Assembly: GCA_041576165.1 (NCBI GenBank) | Contig: JBFGLM010000088.1 | Span: forward strand, 1 to 12,120 | Source of the DNA: Acidimicrobiia bacterium | GTDB lineage: Bacteria > Actinomycetota > Acidimicrobiia > Spongiisociales > Spongiisociaceae | DNA: 12,120 nt | Direction of reading: 5' to 3' | Shown: positions 2,247 through 12,120 of the stretch, in pieces | How positions within the stretch are numbered: position 1 is the stretch's first letter | How the letters are laid out: each line of letters begins with the position of its first letter | Position numbers and translations under genes: made by a program | The notes under the pieces: model-generated | Told to the model about the DNA's origin: nothing | The model's input: only the letters and a program-made list of their open reading frames with translations | Databases searched by the model: none

Positions 2247-2768
2247 GTGGACCGGGTTTTCGTAGGTTCGATCGGCCGGGCCCACGGCGTCAAAGGCGCC
2301 GTGGTTGTTCGGCCCGACTCCGATCATCCTGCTCGCTTCGATCCCGGCTCCCGGCTGCTCACCGACCTGACGGGCCGCCCCGTCGTCGAGATTGTCCAGG
2401 CAACACCCGACGGGAAGGGCAATCTGATTGTCCGGTTTGCCGGCGTTTCCGATCGCACGGCGGCCGAAGGATTGCGTGGCGCCGAACTGTTCATCACCGC
2501 CGGCGACCGGCGTCCACTGTCGGATGGTGAGTACTGGTCGGAGGATCTGGTTGGGCTCGAGGTGCGGGTGGCCGGCGAATCGGTCGGCCGCATCACCGAT
2601 GTGGATCTCGATGCGGCCCAGACTCGGATCACAGTGGCGCTCACCAGCGGGGGATCGGCCGACGTTCCTTTCGTTGAGCCGCTGGTGCCGGTCGTGGACC
2701 TGATCGCCGGGTACGTCGAGATCGCCGACGTCGAAGGATTGCTCACCGAGACTCGAGGTCGATCGTGA
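2247..2768 (+). CDS. rimM: Ribosome maturation factor RimM (about 173 aa)
   Basis: VGSIGRAHGVKGAVVV, DRTAAEGLRG, EYWSEDLVGLEV, VPFVEPLVPVVD. Start placed at GTG 2247, just after the khpA stop. Synteny. Confidence 0.95.
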   Translation: MDRVFVGSIGRAHGVKGAVVVRPDSDHPARFDPGSRLLTDLTGRPVVEIVQATPDGKGNLIVRFAGVSDRTAAEGLRGAELFITAGDRRPLSDGEYWSEDLVGLEVRVAGESVGRITDVDLDAAQTRITVALTSGGSADVPFVEPLVPVVDLIAGYVEIADVEGLLTETRGRS

Positions 2769-3597
2769 CCCCGGTGCGGGAGCCGTCTGCGGGCGACTGA
2801 CCTCCGACGAAGAGCTGGAAAGGGCCCTCGGGTACCTGCTCCAGGGTCATGAGGAAGGATCCCCACGTCTCGACGTATGCCGCGGAGGCCGTGACTCGCT
2901 CTTCTGCGGTCCCGGCGCCGTCAGTGACCCGCCCGATCACTTGCCCGTCGAGTGTTCGCGCATAGCCGGTGACCTGCAGGGGCGGGCTCACCACCGGATC
3001 AATCGGAGAGGTCACGACGATCAAATCGGAGGTGACCGGACCAGCTGGAGGCTCGGCATCCGAAGGGCGCAACTCGACCACCAGCCGAGCGGGCGTGCGG
3101 TTGGTCATGAGACGGGCCTCGGCCGCACCGCCCAGAATCACATCGACGAAGATGCGACCATTGAGATCCCGTACCACGTAGGCACGCTGGGCGATCGACC
3201 CCTCGAACACCGACTCGGCCAGTGCGCTCGACTGCACGACCGTGCTAAAACTGACTCGGACGATCCCCAAATCGGCCAGCAGCTCGACCTGCGCCGGGCT
3301 CAGCTGAGTGGCCGGTGCTCCGCCCCGGGTGGCGAACTCCAGCGTGACTCGCTCACATTCCGGCTGGGTGTCGAGGCTGATGGACAGGATCTGTTCGGTG
3401 TCGCCCGAGCCGTCGCCGACCCGACCCAGCGGCCCGGCGGCCACATAACCGCCCGTGCCACAGTCGGCTCCTGCGGCCTCGGCGGTCGCTGGAGCGGCAG
3501 TGGAGGTGTCGCCGGCCGTATCGGGGACCGTCGGACCGTTGACCGAGGTGGTGCAGGAGGTCACCAGCAGCGCCAGGCCGACGACGATGTGTCTCAC
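2743..3597 (-). CDS. Putative lipoprotein: AMIN-like beta domain plus C-terminal Gmad2-like Ig domain
   Basis: Signal peptide and lipobox MRHIVVGLALLVTS-C from GTG 3597; Thr/Ala/Pro linker; CERVTLEF...PARLVVEL resembles actinobacterial AMIN-like domains; IVVTSP...PLQVTGYART...WGSF resembles Gmad2. Domain calls are by eye. Confidence 0.7.
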   Translation of the reverse strand: MRHIVVGLALLVTSCTTSVNGPTVPDTAGDTSTAAPATAEAAGADCGTGGYVAAGPLGRVGDGSGDTEQILSISLDTQPECERVTLEFATRGGAPATQLSPAQVELLADLGIVRVSFSTVVQSSALAESVFEGSIAQRAYVVRDLNGRIFVDVILGGAAEARLMTNRTPARLVVELRPSDAEPPAGPVTSDLIVVTSPIDPVVSPPLQVTGYARTLDGQVIGRVTDGAGTAEERVTASAAYVETWGSFLMTLEQVPEGPFQLFVGGQSPADGSRTGVTIDLESR

Positions 3598-3664
3598 GGA
3601 GCGCGAGGGTACAGCACCCGTCCGGCTCAAGTAATTGGACCGCCGTTCCGATACCGGTAGCTAG

Positions 3665-4246
3665 ATGGTAGGGGTCCTCCGCGCGACGTTGTTGTTCGCC
3701 GCCGTCCTGAGCTTGATCGGGATCGGCGCCGTCGCCGCGATGGCCCAGGAATCACCGGTAGAAGCCTTTCCGCACCTCGACGAAGACGCCAACTACAAAG
3801 ACGACTTTGGCGTGTTCGCCCGTGACCGGATTCACATGGGCATCGACATCTTCTCACCCAAAGGAACGCCGATTGTGGCGGTCGCCGACGGGTTCGTGGT
3901 CCGGATGGCGAAGGGAACCAAGGCTGGGTATTACATCGTGGTTCGCCACGCCGAAGGGTGGGCTTCCTACTACCTGCACCTCGACAACGACGTCCGCGGC
4001 GACGACGGCCGGGGAGGCCGGGGCACCGCCTTCGCTGACGGCGTCAGCGTGGGGGACTACGTAGAGGCCGGCACCGTCATCGGCTACGTGGGCGATTCAG
4101 GCAACGCAGAGGGCACACCATCTCACACCCATTTCGAGCTCCACTACAGAGGTAGGCAGGTCGACCCGTGGCCGTATGTCCATCGGGCGATGCAACGCTG
4201 GAAGCTGCGCACCGACATCATCGAAGGCAACACCCCGTTTCGCTGA
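3665..4246 (+). CDS. Secreted M23-family Zn metallopeptidase (peptidoglycan endopeptidase-like)
   Basis: N-terminal signal peptide (AAMA|QE); HMGID (HxxxD), GTPIVAVADG, YYLHL, IGYVGDSGNA, SHTHFE (HxH), VDP. Confidence 0.93.
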   Translation: MVGVLRATLLFAAVLSLIGIGAVAAMAQESPVEAFPHLDEDANYKDDFGVFARDRIHMGIDIFSPKGTPIVAVADGFVVRMAKGTKAGYYIVVRHAEGWASYYLHLDNDVRGDDGRGGRGTAFADGVSVGDYVEAGTVIGYVGDSGNAEGTPSHTHFELHYRGRQVDPWPYVHRAMQRWKLRTDIIEGNTPFR

Positions 4247-4268
4247 TCGACCTCCGCCACCGGCCCTG

Positions 4269-5294
4269 TCACGCCGGCACGGGGTCGGGCAGCCGTCCCA
4301 GGCGTTCGATCAGATCCACAACCCGGTTCGAATAACCCCATTCGTTGTCGTACCACGACATGACCTTGATCAGGTTGTCTCCGAGCACTTGCGTCGCGTT
4401 GGCATCGAATATGCTCGAGTGCGGGTTGCCGATGATGTCGGTGGACACCAGCGGCTCCTCTGAATATTCGAGGATGCCGCGCATGTCGCCCTGCGCAGCA
4501 TTGCGCACCGCTTCGCGGATCCGGTCCGCATCGACCGGCTGCTCGACCTCGACCACCAGATCGACGGTGCTTCCGTCGGGCACCGGCACCCGCATGGCCA
4601 TCCCGTCCAGCTTGCCCTGCAGCTTGGGGAGCACCTCGCCAACCGCCTTGGCTGCGCCGGTGGTCGTCGGGATGATGTTCTCGGTGGCGGCTCTCGACCG
4701 GCGTAGATCCTTGTGGGGCACATCGGCCAGCCGCTGGTCATTGGTGTATGCGTGTACGGTTGTCATGACACCGCGTTTGATGCCGAACGAGTCGTCCAGC
4801 ACCTTGGCGAGCGGCGCCAGACAATTCGTGGTGCACGACGCATTCGAGACGATCCGGTCGGAGGCGTCCAATTCCTCATCATTGACGCCCAGGACAACTG
4901 TGGCGTCGATTTCGTCCTTGGCGGGAACCGTCAGCAACACCCGCTTGGCGCCTGCCTCCAGATGTTTCTCCAACGACGCCCGGTCGCGGAAGACGCCCGT
5001 TGATTCCACTACGACATCCACGTCCAAGTCCCGCCACGGCAGCTGGGCCGGATCACGTTCCATCAACATCTGGACGTGGTGCCCGCCCACGGTCATCACT
5101 CCTTCGCCCAGCGTCACCTTCGAATCGAGTGCGCCCATCACGGTGTCGTAGCGAAGCAGGTATGCGAGCACCTCATCATCGGCCAGGTCGTTGATCGCCA
5201 CCACATCGATGTCGCTGTCCTGACGCTCCATGATGATCCTGAACACAGCGCGGCCAATTCGGCCGAACCCGTTGATTGCGACCCGGGTCGTCAT
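4269..5294 (-). CDS. gap: Type I glyceraldehyde-3-phosphate dehydrogenase, catalytically intact (341 aa), probably NAD-preferring
   Basis: INGFGRIGR, AINDL, ESTG, NASCTTNCLAP (catalytic Cys codon TGC at 4833-4835), TTVHAYT, IPTTTGAA, RVP, WYDNEWGYS. ATG 5294 is preceded by GAGGAGG. Confidence 0.97.
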   Translation of the reverse strand: MTTRVAINGFGRIGRAVFRIIMERQDSDIDVVAINDLADDEVLAYLLRYDTVMGALDSKVTLGEGVMTVGGHHVQMLMERDPAQLPWRDLDVDVVVESTGVFRDRASLEKHLEAGAKRVLLTVPAKDEIDATVVLGVNDEELDASDRIVSNASCTTNCLAPLAKVLDDSFGIKRGVMTTVHAYTNDQRLADVPHKDLRRSRAATENIIPTTTGAAKAVGEVLPKLQGKLDGMAMRVPVPDGSTVDLVVEVEQPVDADRIREAVRNAAQGDMRGILEYSEEPLVSTDIIGNPHSSIFDANATQVLGDNLIKVMSWYDNEWGYSNRVVDLIERLGRLPDPVPA

Positions 5295-6310
5295 GCTGGT
5301 ACCTCCTCGAGCTGTGACAGCAATTCGAGTGTCTCCACGATCCGCACGGAATACCCCCAACCGTTGTCGAACCACACGATGAATTTGACCATGGTCTCTG
5401 CCATCGTCATGGTTGCCAGGCTGTCGTAGATACCTGAGTGCTGGCTGCCCCACACGTCGGTCGAAACGATCGGGTCGATCTGATACTCGAGGATGCCGGC
5501 GTATTTGCCCTGGGCCGCGGCCCGCACTGCTTCGTTTACCTCGTCCTTGGTGGCCGCACGTTTGAAAATCGCGACCGCGTCGACCGTCGATCCGTTTTCG
5601 ACCGGGACGTTCAGCGCCATCGCCGACAGCTTCCCGGCCAGCTGCGGAAACACTTGGGACAGGATCTCGGGTGAGTTGGTCTCGGCCGGGATGATGTTCT
5701 CACCTGCGGCCCGGCTCGTCCGGAAGCCCTCGGTCGGGACGTCGGCGAGGCGCTCACGATTGGTATACGCATGCACGGTCGTGAAGAACATCCGCTCGAT
5801 TCCGAACTCCGAATCGAGCACGTCCAGCACCGGGGCCAGCGCATTAGACGTGTTGGAGCCCATCGCGATGATCCGGTTCTCCGGTGTCACAACCTCGTCG
5901 TTCACCCCCTTCAACAGGATCGGCAGATCGTTGGGATCTTCGGGCGTCGACGCCAGGATGACCCGACCTGCACCGCGTTCGAGGTGTTTCTCACACCAGG
6001 CCCGCGTGCGGTACTTGCCCGTCGCTTCTACCACTGTCGACACACCGAGATCGCTCCAGTCAACGCCGCCAGGTTCACGGACGTTCACGATCGGGATTCG
6101 GGCGTCTTCCACTACCAGGGTGCTGCCATCGAGGGAGACCGTCTTCGAGAAGCGTCCGTAGATCGAGTCGTACTTGAGCAGATAGGCCAGCGCTTCGGGT
6201 TCGGCGACGTCGACAATCGCTCCCACCTTGGGGCCGTCGGCCGCATTCAGCAGCCGGAAAACGTTGCGGCCGATCCGGCCAAACCCCATGAGGCCGATTT
6301 GTTGCGCCAC
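5291..6310 (-). CDS. GAPDH-like protein lacking the catalytic cysteine (339 aa); probable pseudoenzyme or non-catalytic GAPDH paralogue
   Basis: Collinear with gap over its full length (MGFGRIGR, YLLKYDS, EATG, TTVHAYTN, RLADVP, WFDNGWGYS), but the active-site motif reads MGSNTSNALAP. GTG 6310 is preceded by GAGGTG. The stop overlaps the gap start (ATGA). Confidence 0.9.
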   Translation of the reverse strand: MAQQIGLMGFGRIGRNVFRLLNAADGPKVGAIVDVAEPEALAYLLKYDSIYGRFSKTVSLDGSTLVVEDARIPIVNVREPGGVDWSDLGVSTVVEATGKYRTRAWCEKHLERGAGRVILASTPEDPNDLPILLKGVNDEVVTPENRIIAMGSNTSNALAPVLDVLDSEFGIERMFFTTVHAYTNRERLADVPTEGFRTSRAAGENIIPAETNSPEILSQVFPQLAGKLSAMALNVPVENGSTVDAVAIFKRAATKDEVNEAVRAAAQGKYAGILEYQIDPIVSTDVWGSQHSGIYDSLATMTMAETMVKFIVWFDNGWGYSVRIVETLELLSQLEEVPA

Positions 6311-6339
6311 GGTCACCTCGCAGATTTGAAGAATCGCCG

Positions 6340-6345
6340 ACAGTA
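6340..6345 (-). promoter_or_regulatory. Putative -10 element for the gap-like/gap operon
   Basis: TACTGT (TAnnnT) on the minus strand in a locally AT-richer stretch about 30 nt upstream of GTG 6310 and its GAGGTG RBS. Confidence 0.35.
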
Positions 6346-6399
6346 CTACACAAATCCTCCGCTCTTGCCGGGTCGGTTGTCCCGGCGATTTCGGATCCG

Positions 6400-6408
6400 T
6401 GATAGCGT
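6400..6408 (+). promoter_or_regulatory. Putative extended -10 promoter for a leaderless or near-leaderless cofG transcript
   Basis: TGA-TAGCGT (TGn-TAnnnT) 8 nt upstream of ATG 6417, with no Shine-Dalgarno. Confidence 0.45.
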
Positions 6409-6416
6409 CCCGGGCC

Positions 6417-7553
6417 ATGGCTCACCCGGCACCCGACCGTGCGCTGGCGATCGATTATCTCGATGGCGTCGTCGACGCCCGTCCCCTGTTTGCCGAGGCA
6501 ACGCGCCTACGCGATGAGGGTAAGGGCCGTACCATCACCTTCAGCCCCAAGGTCTTCGTCCCCTTGACCACCCTCTGCAACGACATCTGTTCCTACTGCA
6601 CGTTTGCCAAACCGCCCGGCGCGGGCGGTCAGTATCTCGAGCCGGAAGACGTTGCCGCCATCGTGGGCGCGGGCGACCGCGCCCGCTGTACGGAGGCACT
6701 TTTCACGTTGGGTGACCGTCCGGAGGCTCGCTGGCCGGCGGCCCGGGCTTGGCTCGACGCGCACAATTATGCCTCGACGCTGGATTACGTCCGGGCCATG
6801 TCCGAGCTGGTGGTCGAGACGAGCGGTCTCTTCCCGCATGCCAACCCCGGCGTGATGGACGATGCCGCAGTGGAGATGCTGCGACCGACCAATGTCTCGA
6901 TGGGCCTGATGCTCGAGAACATTTCTCCCCGCTTGACCGAACCGGGCATGCCGCATCACGGCAGCCCCGACAAGGACCCGCAGGTCCGGGTAGCGACGAT
7001 CGAAGCCGCCGGGCGGCAGCACGTTCCATTCACCTCAGGAATCCTCGTCGGCATCGGTGAGACGAACGAGGAGATCGTCGACAGCCTCTTGGCGCTGGCC
7101 GAGCTCCACCAGCGATGGGGCCACATTCAAGAGATCATCGTCCAGAACTTCCGAGCCAAGGCCGATACTCGCATGCGGCGTTCGGCCGAACCGGTGCCTT
7201 ATTGGTTCGCCCGGGTGATTGCGATCGCCCGCTGGATCCTGGGGCCGGAGATGAACCTGCAGGTGCCGCCCAACCTGACCGAGAGCTATGAGACCTATCT
7301 GGCGGCCGGTATCAATGACTGGGGCGGGGTTTCGCCGCTGACAATCGACTGGGTCAATCCCGAGGCGCCGTGGCCGCATCTCACGGAACTCCGCCGTCGG
7401 ACCGCGACCGCCGGCTTCCGCCTCCGGCCACGTTTGCCTGTGTACCCGGAGTTCATTTCTGAGCATTGGGTCGACGCCCGGCTGTTGCGCCGGGTCGACG
7501 CCGCGGTGGACGCTGACGGATATGCAGCCGCCCCCCAGGCGGCGGGGGTGTAG
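6417..7553 (+). CDS. cofG: 7,8-didemethyl-8-hydroxy-5-deazariboflavin (FO) synthase subunit CofG, radical SAM (F420 biosynthesis)
   Basis: TFSPKVFVPLTTLCNDICSYCTF (CxxxCxxC at 6576-6599), EALFTLGDRPE, LFPHANPG, SMGLMLE, PDKDP, FTSGILVGIGET, HIQEIIVQNFRAK, AGINDWGGVSP, NPEAPWP. GTG 6399 is an alternative start. Confidence 0.95.
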   Translation: MAHPAPDRALAIDYLDGVVDARPLFAEATRLRDEGKGRTITFSPKVFVPLTTLCNDICSYCTFAKPPGAGGQYLEPEDVAAIVGAGDRARCTEALFTLGDRPEARWPAARAWLDAHNYASTLDYVRAMSELVVETSGLFPHANPGVMDDAAVEMLRPTNVSMGLMLENISPRLTEPGMPHHGSPDKDPQVRVATIEAAGRQHVPFTSGILVGIGETNEEIVDSLLALAELHQRWGHIQEIIVQNFRAKADTRMRRSAEPVPYWFARVIAIARWILGPEMNLQVPPNLTESYETYLAAGINDWGGVSPLTIDWVNPEAPWPHLTELRRRTATAGFRLRPRLPVYPEFISEHWVDARLLRRVDAAVDADGYAAAPQAAGV

Positions 7554-7556
7554 CGA

Positions 7557-9449
7557 ATGGAGCGCTCAGTGAAAGATGACAGTGCGGTCAGAGTGACGTT
7601 TCTGCGGATGCGGCCGGTTGAGACCATCAACGAGCTGACGGCCGGCACCCGGCGTCGAGAAGGCACGACCACGGTTGAGCTGGCTGTACCCGACGTAGCC
7701 GGCGTGGCCGCGGCGGTCCGGGGCGGGCTGCTCCCGGTGTCGGTGGGCGAAGAGTCGGTGGATGCCGCTGCGTGGGTGATCGAGCCCGAGCAGGCAGCTG
7801 CGCTCGTCAAACGCCGGGTAGAGCCTTGGCGGGTCACCGTGATCGACTCGGGTCCCCGAGCCGCGGTGCTGGACGCGGTTGCCCGTACCCAAGCGGCGTA
7901 CCTGCGCACCGGTCGCAGCCGCATCACGGAGGCGGTCGACCTGGCCGGTCTGCCGGCCATCCCCACCGTGGTGTCGGTGTTCGTGGACGACGTGGAGGAT
8001 GGGGTGCAGGCGGTTACTCAGGGCGCACGCGATCTGCTGTTGCGAGACTGGGACGTGGAGCGCATCGGACAGCTGCGTGACGCGCTCGATATCCCACTGG
8101 TCGAGCGCACGGCCATTCCGCCGGGGATCGCAATCGACGCAGTGCGCGAATCATTCACGCCCGACCTGTTCGGCACGTACCTGGACCAGGTCGATGGATC
8201 AGGTGTCGCCCGGCCCCGCTACAGCTGGGCGCCCGGCCGAGACGAGCCGCCGCCGGTGCCGCCGCGACGTATCTCGGTTGAATGGCTTGACGCAAGCTGG
8301 TTGACGGGGCGATCGCCCGAGGCACTCAGCGGCGCTTCCGGCGCGGTCCGGTCCGTGCTAGAGCGTTGCTTGGAGGACACGCCACCTAGTCGCAACGAAG
8401 TCGAGGATCTGCTGTCGGCCCGGGGTGACGACGTGGATGCCATTGCGTGGGCGGCGGATCAGCTCCGATCGCGCCGGGTGGGTGACATTGTGACCTACGT
8501 GGTGAACCGCAACATCAACTACACCAACATGTGCTACTTCCGGTGCGGATTCTGCGCGTTTTCCAAAGGCCCGCGCAGTCTCAACTTGCGGGGCGAGCCT
8601 TATCTCATGGGCGTAGACGAGGTGGTCGCTCGGGCGCAGGAGGCTTGGGACAAAGGCGCCACCGAGGTGTGTCTCCAAGGTGGCATCCACCCCGAGTTCA
8701 CCGGCGATTTCTACGTGTCGGTGCTGCGCGGCATCAAAGAGGCGCTTCCCGGGATGCATGTTCACGGGTTTACGCCCCTGGAGGTATGGCAGGGTGCCGA
8801 GACCCTGGGCATGAACGTGCGTGACTTCCTCGTCATGCTGCGTGACGCCGGCCTCGGGACGCTGCCCGGGACTGCTGCGGAGATTCTGGATGACCGCGTG
8901 CGGGAGCATCTGTGCCCGGACAAGATCAGGACGTCGCAATGGGCCGAAGTCATGATCACGGCTCATGGTCTCGGGTTGAGGTCCACCGCCACGATCATGT
9001 TCGGTCACATCGATGATCCCGGCTCGTGGGCCAACCACTTCGAGGCGCTGCGCCAGATTCAGCGCCGGACCGGCGGCATCACCGAATTCGTTCCCTTGCC
9101 CTTCGTGCATATGGGTGCCCCGATCTATCTGCGGAGGGCGTCGCGGCCGGGGCCCACATGGGACGAGGTGGTGCTGATCCACGCGGTCGCCCGCCTGGCG
9201 TTCGACGGCCTGATCGACAACATCCAAGGATCGTGGGTCAAGCTGGGTCTCGACGGCGCCGGCCGGCTCCTCGGAGCCGGGTGCAACGACCTCGGCGGCA
9301 CGCTCATGAATGAAATCATCAGCCGTTCGGCCGGTGCATCGCACGGCCAGGAGATGACGGTGGCCGACTTCGAGCAGCTCATATCCGGGTTGGGCAGGAT
9401 CCCCGCCCGCCGCAATACCGTGTACGAGATCCTCGAAACGGCCGACTGA
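7557..9449 (+). CDS. cofH: FO synthase subunit CofH (radical SAM) with long N-terminal extension
   Basis: C-terminal part: TYVVNRNINYTNMCYFRCGFCAFSKG (CxxxCxxC at 8532-8555), EVCLQGGIHP, LPGTAAEILDD, TIMFGHID, EFVPLPFVH, NIQGSWVKLG, NDLGGTLMNE. Start uncertain (7557, 7569 or 7608). Adjacency to cofG favours CofH over MqnC/MqnE. Confidence 0.92.
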   Translation: MERSVKDDSAVRVTFLRMRPVETINELTAGTRRREGTTTVELAVPDVAGVAAAVRGGLLPVSVGEESVDAAAWVIEPEQAAALVKRRVEPWRVTVIDSGPRAAVLDAVARTQAAYLRTGRSRITEAVDLAGLPAIPTVVSVFVDDVEDGVQAVTQGARDLLLRDWDVERIGQLRDALDIPLVERTAIPPGIAIDAVRESFTPDLFGTYLDQVDGSGVARPRYSWAPGRDEPPPVPPRRISVEWLDASWLTGRSPEALSGASGAVRSVLERCLEDTPPSRNEVEDLLSARGDDVDAIAWAADQLRSRRVGDIVTYVVNRNINYTNMCYFRCGFCAFSKGPRSLNLRGEPYLMGVDEVVARAQEAWDKGATEVCLQGGIHPEFTGDFYVSVLRGIKEALPGMHVHGFTPLEVWQGAETLGMNVRDFLVMLRDAGLGTLPGTAAEILDDRVREHLCPDKIRTSQWAEVMITAHGLGLRSTATIMFGHIDDPGSWANHFEALRQIQRRTGGITEFVPLPFVHMGAPIYLRRASRPGPTWDEVVLIHAVARLAFDGLIDNIQGSWVKLGLDGAGRLLGAGCNDLGGTLMNEIISRSAGASHGQEMTVADFEQLISGLGRIPARRNTVYEILETAD

Positions 9450-11285: not shown

Positions 11286-11306
11286 GCTCAGCCGGCCGGG
11301 CTGAGC
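11286..11306. terminator. Hairpin at the convergent junction of the response regulator and YbjQ-like genes; possible terminator
   Basis: GCTCAGCC-ggccg-GGCTGAGC, an 8-bp inverted repeat with no U-tract. Confidence 0.25.
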
Positions 11307-12120
11307 GTCACTGCGGTGCCCGTGGCGGTGACCACCATGCTTCCGACGACCTCGTGCACCGCGAGGTTCACTCCGATCACGGCGTGAGCACCCCGCGTCA
11401 AGCTCTCTTCAACCATCGCCTGCACCGCAGCCGATCGTGCCGCACCGATGTCGGGGTGATCGCCTAGCGAGGCGTCGCCGGCCACCAGGCCCAGGTACGT
11501 CTCGGGAGTCCAACCATGGATTGTGCTGACCGTCGCAACGATCGGGCGCCACTCGGATGCCACGCCGTCGCCCTGGCCGTCCACCCAGCCCTGAGCGGAC
11601 TCTGCCCATAGGCTTGCCCACTCCAGTGCCGCCGGCGCCGCCCGCGCGCCTGCGCTGGTTTCCTCGACGGGGGGTTCGGCGCCAGCTCCCGGTAGCGCCT
11701 CGGCCTCGTCCTCCACCGCTTCCTCGGTCTCCATGACCGGCGCCTCCGTGGATTCCGGATCGTCGAGCGCCATGGCGGCCGGCGCAGCCGCGGCAGCGGC
11801 AACCAAGGCGCCCAGGTTGGGTCGATCCTCGCCTTCCTCCTCGGCTCGCTCGGTATCTGCCGCGTCCGCCGGGACCGGGTCAGCAGGGGGCGAGCCGGCC
11901 GGACCGTCCTCGGCTGGAACCACCTCGGTCCAATGCGTCAGGGCAGATTCCTGAACGTCGACGACCGACTCGGGGGCGACCATTACCTCGCTTGGCGCAT
12001 CGTCGGTGGGTGTCGGTTCGGGGGTTGTTTCTTCGTCGGGTGTGGCGGCGAAGGTTTGTTCGGCTGCGGGTTCGTGGTCGGTGGGTGTCGGTTCGGGGGT
12101 TGTTTCTTCGTCGGGTGTGG
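11288..12120 (-). CDS. Acidic low-complexity, repeat-containing protein with C-terminal YbjQ/UPF0145-like (putative heavy-metal-binding) domain; probably 5'-truncated by the window edge
   Basis: C-terminus PIVATVSTIHGWTPETYLGLVAG...ARSAAVQAMVEESLTRGAHAVIGV...MVVTATGTAV matches the YbjQ pattern. The frame stays open upstream of ATG 11983 to the window edge (TPDEETTPEPTPTDHEPAAEQTFAATPDEETTPEPTPTDDAPSEVM). Confidence 0.8.
   Translation of the reverse strand, partial: TPDEETTPEPTPTDHEPAAEQTFAATPDEETTPEPTPTDDAPSEVMVAPESVVDVQESALTHWTEVVPAEDGPAGSPPADPVPADAADTERAEEEGEDRPNLGALVAAAAAAPAAMALDDPESTEAPVMETEEAVEDEAEALPGAGAEPPVEETSAGARAAPAALEWASLWAESAQGWVDGQGDGVASEWRPIVATVSTIHGWTPETYLGLVAGDASLGDHPDIGAARSAAVQAMVEESLTRGAHAVIGVNLAVHEVVGSMVVTATGTAVTLSPAG
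12002..12120. repeat. Intragenic direct repeat: identical 44-bp copies at 12002-12045 and 12077-12120 (75-bp period; second copy cut by the window edge)
   Basis: gtcggtgggtgtcggttcgggggttgtttcttcgtcgggtgtgg occurs twice; the period is a multiple of 3; encodes TPDEETTPEPTPTD on the minus strand. Confidence 0.92.

Follow-up and report, generated by a model that had tools for sequence, protein, structure and literature searches.

A conserved GAPDH paralogue without the nucleophilic cysteine, coupled to gapA in Acidimicrobiia, as a candidate partner subunit

Why would a bacterium keep, directly in front of its glyceraldehyde-3-phosphate dehydrogenase (GAPDH) gene, a second GAPDH-family gene that lacks the residue on which the chemistry depends? 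This question is raised by a 12,120-nucleotide stretch of an Acidimicrobiia genome (contig JBFGLM010000088.1; the whole stretch is called the window below), in which two GAPDH-family genes lie in tandem on the minus strand. Of the two, the upstream gene, gapX (P0001; 5291 to 6310, stop codon included), encodes a 339-residue paralogue with the GAPDH fold that is without Cys149, Arg195, Arg231, Gly209, and Glu314 (position numbers such as 149, 176, 195, and 231 follow GAPDH residue numbering). The downstream gene, gapA (P0003; 4269 to 5294), encodes a canonical type I GAPDH of 341 residues, and the two products are 46% identical over 339 residues in a pairwise alignment. A preliminary description of the sequence had regarded gapX as a candidate pseudoenzyme. 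Below, we describe its conservation and its coupling to gapA, and we tentatively propose that GapX acts as a noncatalytic partner of GapA.

The active site of GapX and its conservation

The active-site changes listed in the preliminary description were all present in the window. On the minus strand, positions 5852 to 5854 read AAC (GTT on the plus strand), an Asn codon two changes away from TGC, at the position of the nucleophilic Cys149. Relative to the neighboring gapA, NASCTTNCLAP has become MGSNTSNALAP, IPTTTGAA has become IPAETNSP, and MRVP has become LNVP; TNDQR, DLRRSRA, and DNEWG read TNRER, GFRTSRA, and DNGWG, respectively. The GFGRIGR, AIVD, VHAY, and WFDN motifs were retained, as had been described, in an open reading frame (ORF) whose translation is uninterrupted over 339 residues and which has a GAGGTG ribosome-binding site. 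As read from the sequence, this Shine-Dalgarno (SD)-like element lies 5 nt upstream of a GTG start codon at 6308 to 6310 (together 6308 to 6321, minus strand), and the GTG is favored over an ATG at 6418 because the lengths of homologues (335 to 345 residues) and their N termini agree with it.

In GAPDH, Cys149 forms the thiohemiacetal and thioester intermediates, Arg231 together with Thr179 binds the substrate phosphate, and Arg195 together with Ser148, Thr150, Thr208, and Gly209 binds inorganic phosphate. GapX of the window reads S-N-T-S-N-A in place of S-C-T-T-N-C and thus is without the nucleophile that type I GAPDH requires; the arginines of the anion sites, which are required as well, are also replaced (Arg195 by Thr and Arg231 by Asn), as are Gly209 and Glu314. 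The protein still has the Rossmann motif, Asp32, and His176, along with GxGxxG, Arg10, Ser148, Thr150, Thr179, Thr208, and Asn313. Because Cys149, Arg195, Arg231, and Gly209 are missing, the oxidation of glyceraldehyde 3-phosphate (G3P) would in practice be excluded, and from established GAPDH enzymology we infer that GapX has no G3P dehydrogenase activity. The same enzymology suggests that GapX is likely to bind NAD(H), since the dinucleotide motifs are kept and engineered C149S and C149A GAPDHs, by their entry titles, were deposited with NAD+ bound.

Both Pfam GAPDH domains matched GapX (PF00044, Gp_dh_N, 2.4e-28; PF02800, Gp_dh_C, 7e-45), and no other domain did. Against TIGR01534, the model of type I GAPDH (EC 1.2.1.12), GapX scored 306.8, under the cut-off of 367.2, and the gapA product scored 460.7; against TIGR01532 (Epd), GapX reached 236.3 versus a cut-off of 530.55, and the Cys of Epd is absent. 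By fold and domains, GapX is therefore a member of the GAPDH superfamily, while by residues and curated scores it is neither a type I GAPDH nor Epd. An AlphaFold2 model of the GapX monomer had a mean predicted local distance difference test (pLDDT) score of 89.1 and a predicted template modeling (pTM) score of 0.89. Its best solved match was the GAPDH of G. stearothermophilus (TM score, 0.88 to 0.89; 42 to 43% identity), and no solved structure of any member of the GapX subfamily was found. The G. stearothermophilus type I enzyme (1GD1; mutants C149S and C149A, 1NQ5 and 1NPT) has the same two domains and the same fold, and GapX is in effect a natural counterpart of these C149 laboratory mutants with further changes in the pocket. 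Within the accessible portion of a review of the family (PMC12041015), the Cys is described in the GAPDH subfamilies covered, and Epd is said to retain it and to act on a phosphorylated aldehyde. Epd, too, is a GAPDH paralogue with a changed function, whereas GapX is without both the Cys and the phosphate-binding arginines.

The Asn codon is not an assembly or sequencing slip, because independent contigs show the same codon. Logan contigs from DNA runs of two studies span 5852 to 5854, and none lists a difference at that codon (X1 record 7, 4654 to 6450; X2 record 16, 5449 to 6450; X5 record 22, 5637 to 5919). A look for RNA runs over positions 4200 to 6450 listed none.

Conservation was assessed in the best 119 database matches (59 to 96% identity to GapX) and in the best 80 loci from a genome scan of species representatives that returned 593 relatives; most records among the 80 loci are named Acidimicrobiia, and a few bins carry other labels. 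At position 149, the 119 homologues have Asn in 118 cases, Asp in 1, and Cys in none, and the 80 loci have Asn in 76 and Cys in 4. Orthologues thus do not keep the Cys, and the four Cys-type forms that could be set against this statement belong to a separate sister clade in other phyla. Cys153 is replaced by Ala and Glu314 by Gly in all 80 loci, Gly209 by Asn in 70, and Ala210 by Ser in 73, while position 231 is never Arg (Asn in 79, Ala in 1); Arg195 is retained only in the four Cys-type loci and is elsewhere Thr, Ser, Gln, or another residue. Arg10, Asp32, Ser148, Arg194, and Arg197 are unaltered throughout, and Asn313 is found in 76 loci (Thr in 4); in the window, the set of NAD-binding motifs (GxGxxG, Arg10, Asp32, and Asn313) is complete. 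All canonical residues are retained in the partner gapA genes. The preliminary description had counted the catalytic His among the kept residues, which is true of the window (VHAY) and not of the family, since position 176 is His in 59 loci and Lys in 21. The Lys176 loci (e.g., L042, L051, L056, and L079; position 180 of P0001) form one subclade, in which Thr179 has changed to Ser and Tyr178 to Met.

When 77 GapX sequences were compared column by column with 78 GapA sequences, 77 columns were conserved alike in both, 16 were fixed to different residues, 35 had lost constraint in GapX, and 2 had gained it. Nine of the 16 differently fixed columns fall in active-site segments (147, 149, 151, 209, 210, 213, 230, 231, and 314), which indicates that the pocket of GapX was rebuilt to a new fixed state and not merely eroded. 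Positions 181, 182, 190, 192, and 195 are less than 60% conserved in gapX versus at least 95% in gapA.

Selection was measured as the ratio of nonsynonymous to synonymous rates (dN/dS, or omega) by the Nei-Gojobori method (NG86). Only close pairs were used (16 listed pairs with a gapX dN of 0.1 or less), because NG86 dS plateaus at about 0.6 to 0.7 in distant pairs of these high-GC genes, which inflates omega and makes those pairs unusable. In the close pairs, omega was 0.036 to 0.254 for gapX, resembling the 0.026 to 0.245 of gapA and not near 1. At the protein level, GapX is the faster-evolving of the two (median dN ratio of gapX to gapA, 1.84; 2775 pairs), with a median identity of 58% versus 75% (2556 pairs, 73 genomes), and it was the more conserved protein in only 7 pairs. 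The ORF is intact in all 80 loci, none of which has a frameshifted gapX. The fixed Asn149, the low close-pair omega, and the lack of frameshifts bear out the earlier view that gapX is not in random decay. It is an intact gene under purifying selection whose product has lost the catalytic residue, which is what defines a pseudoenzyme by conservation. In the stricter sense of a pseudoenzyme, a protein without any activity, the term may not apply, as another activity is possible given the fixed new pocket.

Coupling to gapA and inheritance of the pair

A canonical gapA lies directly downstream of gapX, on the same strand, in 78 of the 80 loci, and the contigs of the remaining two end at gapX. At the junction in the window (5291 to 5306, minus strand), the stop and start codons overlap as ATGA (5291 to 5294), and a GGAGG (5302 to 5306) lies within the final gapX codons, seven bases 5' of the gapA ATG. 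The spacing of the 77 junctions measured is -4 (ATGA) in 59, -1 in 3, and +1 to +14 in 15, and an SD-like 4-mer precedes gapA in 61 of them. No neighbor other than gapA is constant across loci; the other neighbors in most loci include a CoxE-type VWA protein, an AAA ATPase, TrkA, an M23 peptidase, and RsfS, among others. The pairwise identities of GapX and GapA correlate (r = 0.78, 2556 pairs). This coupling to gapA appears to be obligate; it had no part in the reasoning of the preliminary description, and we consider it the strongest new lead. A paralogue of such identity, joined by an ATGA overlap and almost always adjacent, would match the combination of paralogy and co-expression that is typical of a "prozyme."

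Long open frames that resemble in-frame gapX-gapA fusions (e.g., in G054) were rejected as such, since they contain, when translated, a stop and the usual change of frame. A scan of positions 4100 to 6600 returned no promoter-like site and two terminator-like sites, versus 1.3 expected from shuffled sequences; the latter are two overlapping hairpins inside gapX (5793 to 5820, minus strand) and probably arose by chance.

Phylogeny was examined with IQ-TREE on 88 rows (LG+C20 model with posterior mean site frequencies [PMSF], quick search; support by the Shimodaira-Hasegawa-like approximate likelihood ratio test [SH-aLRT] only). Asn-type GapX forms one clade across orders (SH-aLRT, 99), the four Cys-type forms another (95), and a third (100) holds all canonical GAPDHs, every partner GapA among them. 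The subtrees of GapX and GapA repeat each other's subclades, which implies that the duplication is older than the radiation of the group and that the pair has been inherited together.

Other GAPDH-like cluster representatives without Cys149 were also seen (P0127, P0128, P0132 to P0134, P0137, P0140, P0143, P0144, P0147, and P0153). They have Val, Ala, Pro, Ser, or Gly at this position, are all annotated as GAPDH, and by source name come in part from Planctomycetota and unclassified marine bins; P0126 (Acidobacteriota by source name) groups with them and yet retains Cys149. A first FastTree tree had placed all divergent representatives in a single clade, which the mixture-model tree did not uphold. 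Because the latter leaves six of them (P0134, P0137, P0140, P0143, P0144, and P0147) unplaced, a single origin for all Cys-less GAPDH-like proteins is not claimed.

In a sample of 201 genomes of the class of the window, GapX was found at an identity of at least 50% in 31 of the 48 genomes of its own order. By family, it was found in all 20 genomes of f2, 7 of 8 of f3, none of 9 of f4, and 2 of 6 of f5. In family f12, with genomes of about 1 Mb, 41 of 47 had two matches, and the five f12 loci examined all showed cofH-cofG, then an Asn-type gapX, and then gapA. The two GAPDH matches of family f14 were rejected as a GapX pair, being unlinked and only 37 to 41% identical to GapX. At locus L090 (G078:C69, 261 to 2490), cofG abuts gapA, and a Gmad2-domain protein and rimM lie downstream as in the window. 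With cofG directly adjoining gapA at the syntenic place, L090 represents a clean loss of gapX. The gene is therefore important enough to outlast genome streamlining yet dispensable in some lineages.

Asn-type pairs also occur in seven bins labeled Gammaproteobacteria or Acidobacteriota (L005, L009, L051, L054, L061, L062, and L078). Their genes nest among those of Acidimicrobiia, which suggests that the contigs were mislabeled or misbinned rather than that the genes were transferred. All public records noted for these proteins are metagenome bins, and no cultured carrier of GapX was found among those records.

The four Cys-keeping loci (L069, L076, L077, and L081; gene at about 6001 to 7020 in each) come from bins labeled Krumholzibacteriota and Acidobacteriota, and in all four the gene lies upstream of a canonical gapA. 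A search starting from these loci gave a set of 120 homologues (73 to 100% identity), which retain Cys149 and His176 in every case and Arg195 in 118. These three residues set the subfamily apart from GapX, with which it has in common C153A (120 of 120), A210S (112 of 120), E314G (120 of 120), and the replacement of Arg231 in all 120 proteins (Asn in 102, Cys in 16, Thr in 2). Position 209, which is Asn in GapX, is Trp, His, Phe, or Tyr. The sister proteins are thus probably still catalytic, with an altered substrate-phosphate site. Their clade is the nearest to the Asn clade in the tree; the branching among the two and a few divergent representatives is not settled, so any order of evolutionary events can be given only conditionally.

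Possible roles of GapX

The reading that we favor, tentatively and with somewhat less than even confidence, is that GapX is a GAPDH-inactive, NAD(H)-binding partner subunit that is made together with GapA and whose remodeled polar pocket binds a ligand. In this scheme, gapX would be transcribed and translated together with GapA via the ATGA overlap, and GapX would join GapA in mixed GAPDH-type oligomers as a noncatalytic subunit. The remodeled pocket (Ser148-Asn149-Thr150, His/Lys176, Thr208-Asn209-Ser210, Asn231, and Gly314) would hold NAD(H), and perhaps a neutral metabolite, and thereby tune GapA. A mixed GapA-GapX oligomer is the best single explanation because it accounts for the kept S-loop, the translational coupling, and the co-inheritance. 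S-loop residues R187, L188, D190, V191, and P192 are invariant in the GapX alignment, and RLADVP occurs in both paralogues (RLADVP ... R-x-S-R-A-A). In the monomer model, low confidence is confined to the S-loop (residues 184 to 190 and 195 to 205 below a pLDDT of 50), which fits a segment that neighboring subunits bring into order in the core of a GAPDH oligomer.

A two-chain prediction of the gapX and gapA products scored 0.54, the best of three controls scoring 0.00, and its runs agreed in at least 99% of contacts with a partner pLDDT of at least 90, although the score may reflect likeness to solved GAPDH tetramers. The mark used for this score was passed by 58 of 80 solved complexes and by 2 of 110 mismatched pairs; a pass at a score of 0.60 or under was seen for only 7 of the 80 complexes and for both of the passing mismatches. 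The prediction lends weak support to a GapX-GapA complex.

In chloroplasts, GapB is itself competent in catalysis and has its regulatory effect by way of a C-terminal extension. The chloroplast GapA/GapB A2B2 GAPDH (e.g., PDB 2PKQ and 7Q53), a single heterotetramer of two paralogues of which one is regulatory, is the model for our proposal. Both of its subunits are catalytic, whereas GapX has neither the extension nor the catalytic residues, and a GapX heteromer is a proposal. Dead paralogues that partner an active enzyme are also known as prozymes, an example being the AdoMetDC prozyme of trypanosomatids. Similarly, the available text of one study states that T. brucei HXK2 is active only with HXK1 (PMC4106842). 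In such systems, the inactive paralogue is kept through its assembly with the active one, and by analogy GapX may be kept in the same way.

Several points weigh against a partner subunit. The operon coupling would also fit two separate enzymes of one pathway, and the two-chain prediction, weak as it is, could be explained by memory of solved GAPDH homotetramers. A fixed, remodeled pocket is also the look to be expected of a new ligand site or of new catalysis. Only one match was found in 17 of the 48 sampled genomes of the same order, and the loss of gapX in some relatives means that GapA does not need GapX everywhere. Fusions of the two proteins would be a further trace of partnership, and none was found: the 18 long matches are all other fusions (PGK, PFK, and others), the best 44% identical, which is weak evidence. 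Finally, since the sister subfamily keeps Cys149, His176, and Arg195, ancestral GapX was probably an enzyme in its own right and not a mere scaffold.

The fixed polar pocket argues that GapX binds something specific, a feature that would suit a regulatory subunit and a stand-alone enzyme equally. A more far-reaching reading, which is possible but doubtful, takes up both. GapX may be the regulatory, noncatalytic subunit of a heteromeric bacterial GAPDH, with a rebuilt, uncharged pocket that senses NAD(H) or a neutral metabolite and gates flux at the step central to glycolysis and gluconeogenesis, or, equally, it may be the first thiol-free dehydrogenase with the GAPDH fold. In the former case, inheritance of this "GAPDH prozyme" together with GapA would go back beyond the divergence of the orders of the class.

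The main alternative, though an unlikely one, is that GapX is a stand-alone, neofunctionalized NAD-dependent oxidoreductase that acts on a neutral, nonphosphorylated substrate and uses no thiol for catalysis. The acid/base would be the His or Lys of position 176, Asn149, Asn209, Ser210, and Asn231 would hold the substrate, and co-expression with gapA would follow from linked reactions, for example, NADH recycling or the handling of triose-derived carbonyls. The new polar set of C149N, G209N, A210S, R231N, and E314G, fixed at 90 to 100%, would suit such an enzyme, as would the kept NAD motifs and the potential base found at position 176 in all 80 loci (His in 59, Lys in 21), and the loss of both phosphate-binding arginines fits an uncharged substrate. 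In addition, the sister clade looks competent with an altered substrate-phosphate site, which would place a change of substrate before the loss of the Cys. However, we know of no GAPDH-family member that catalyzes without the Cys, no substrate can be named, other pocket positions are relaxed (181, 182, 190, 192, and 195), and the strict adjacency to gapA across clades exceeds usual pathway linkage.

Less likely still, GapX could be an NAD(H)- or metabolite-binding protein with a nonenzymatic role independent of any GapA complex, such as a sensor of redox state or of a ligand or a moonlighter that binds RNA or protein, and one that simply shares the promoter of gapA. Its conserved dinucleotide motifs and its remodeled but fixed pocket are compatible with this role, for which there is a precedent in T. 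brucei. In the accessible part of its description (PMC4106842), TbGAPDHL has Pro in place of the nucleophilic Cys152, is judged inactive with a cofactor pocket that may be retained, and is a component of the paraflagellar rod, thus having a structural role, that is poorly conserved among orthologues. GapX differs from this eukaryotic protein in being bacterial, strongly conserved, and operon-coupled to an active enzyme. A binding protein of this sort would leave unexplained the ATGA coupling, the universal adjacency to gapA, and the invariant S-loop common to GapX and GapA, and GapX has gained no DNA-binding, RNA-binding, or signaling domain, as only the two GAPDH domains match. The precedent also bears on novelty, which the preliminary description had left to a search. 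No published description of the GapX subfamily was found, and neither a bacterial Cys-less GAPDH paralogue nor such a partner of GapA was the subject of any paper found by full-text searches, but an inactive, Cys-less GAPDH-like protein had already been described in trypanosomes, so the kind as such is not unprecedented (PMC4106842, available text).

That gapX has recently become a pseudogene, or is a gapA duplicate altered by an artifact of assembly or sequencing, is barely credible: the lost Cys, the TIGR01534 score under the cut-off, and protein evolution about 1.8 times faster than that of gapA (58% versus 75% identity) would fit it, but it is refuted by intact ORFs in the window and all 80 loci, close-pair omega far below 1, an Asn clade with an SH-aLRT of 99% across orders, the agreement of independent contigs, and retention in streamlined genomes of about 1 Mb.

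Surroundings of the pair and implications

Divergent from gapX on the plus strand lie cofG (6399 to 7553) and cofH (7557 to 9449), which encode FO synthase subunits and are given for context only. They are two separate genes in the window, not the fused FbiC form. CofH has 630 residues, of which the N-terminal 265 or so have no Pfam or NCBIfam match; the matches to the CofH and radical-SAM models begin only at about residue 265. The two genes are divergent beside gapX in 11 of the 80 loci and in all 5 f12 loci. A functional link to F420 was rejected, since most loci have other neighbors and cofG remains beside gapA where gapX was lost (L090); for the same reasons, the adjacency is read as inherited ancestral synteny. 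Between rimM and gapA lie genes for a putative lipoprotein with a Gmad2 immunoglobulin-like domain (2743 to 3630, minus strand) and an M23 peptidase (3665 to 4246, plus strand), and these, with an ffh-rpsP-KH-rimM block, adjoin the gap pair in several other loci too. An ORF that runs off the end of the window (11288 to 12118, minus strand) has a repetitive N-terminal part rich in Pro, Glu, Thr, and Ala and a C-terminal YbjQ_1 domain (putative heavy-metal binding). In the host genome (5.1 Mb, 161 contigs), the gapA of the window is the only canonical GAPDH gene found. As pgk sits on a different contig, gapA is outside any gap-pgk-tpi operon.

In public records, these proteins go under "glyceraldehyde-3-phosphate dehydrogenase" or "type I GAPDH" and once under "NAD-binding domain-containing protein," and generic GAPDH and Epd clusters were all that the ESM Atlas gave. 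Judged by its residues, GapX annotated as GAPDH is almost certainly not one, and because it is named a type I GAPDH, the enzyme is overcounted in metabolic reconstructions. The signature Asn149, Asn231, and Gly314 would separate GapX from GAPDH in annotation. New here are the ATGA-coupled pairing with gapA, the mirrored trees, the retention in streamlined genomes, the His176Lys subclade, and the Cys-keeping sister subfamily.

GAPDH is among the best-studied enzymes, yet a large environmental clade carries a Cys-less second copy that is tied to the active one, and genome-streamlined marine members (about 1 Mb) carry it too. As a partner subunit, GapX would give bacteria a new means of building or regulating a core enzyme of glycolysis, and it would be a clean case, in bacteria, of a dead paralogue retained for assembly. 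As an enzyme, it would perform thiol-independent chemistry on the GAPDH scaffold. Should it prove to be a regulatory subunit or a thiol-free dehydrogenase, GapX and its sister subfamily would constitute an unrecognized two-gene GAPDH module in several phyla. The gapX-gapA pair thus suggests an unstudied partner or regulator in central metabolism and not a dying gene.

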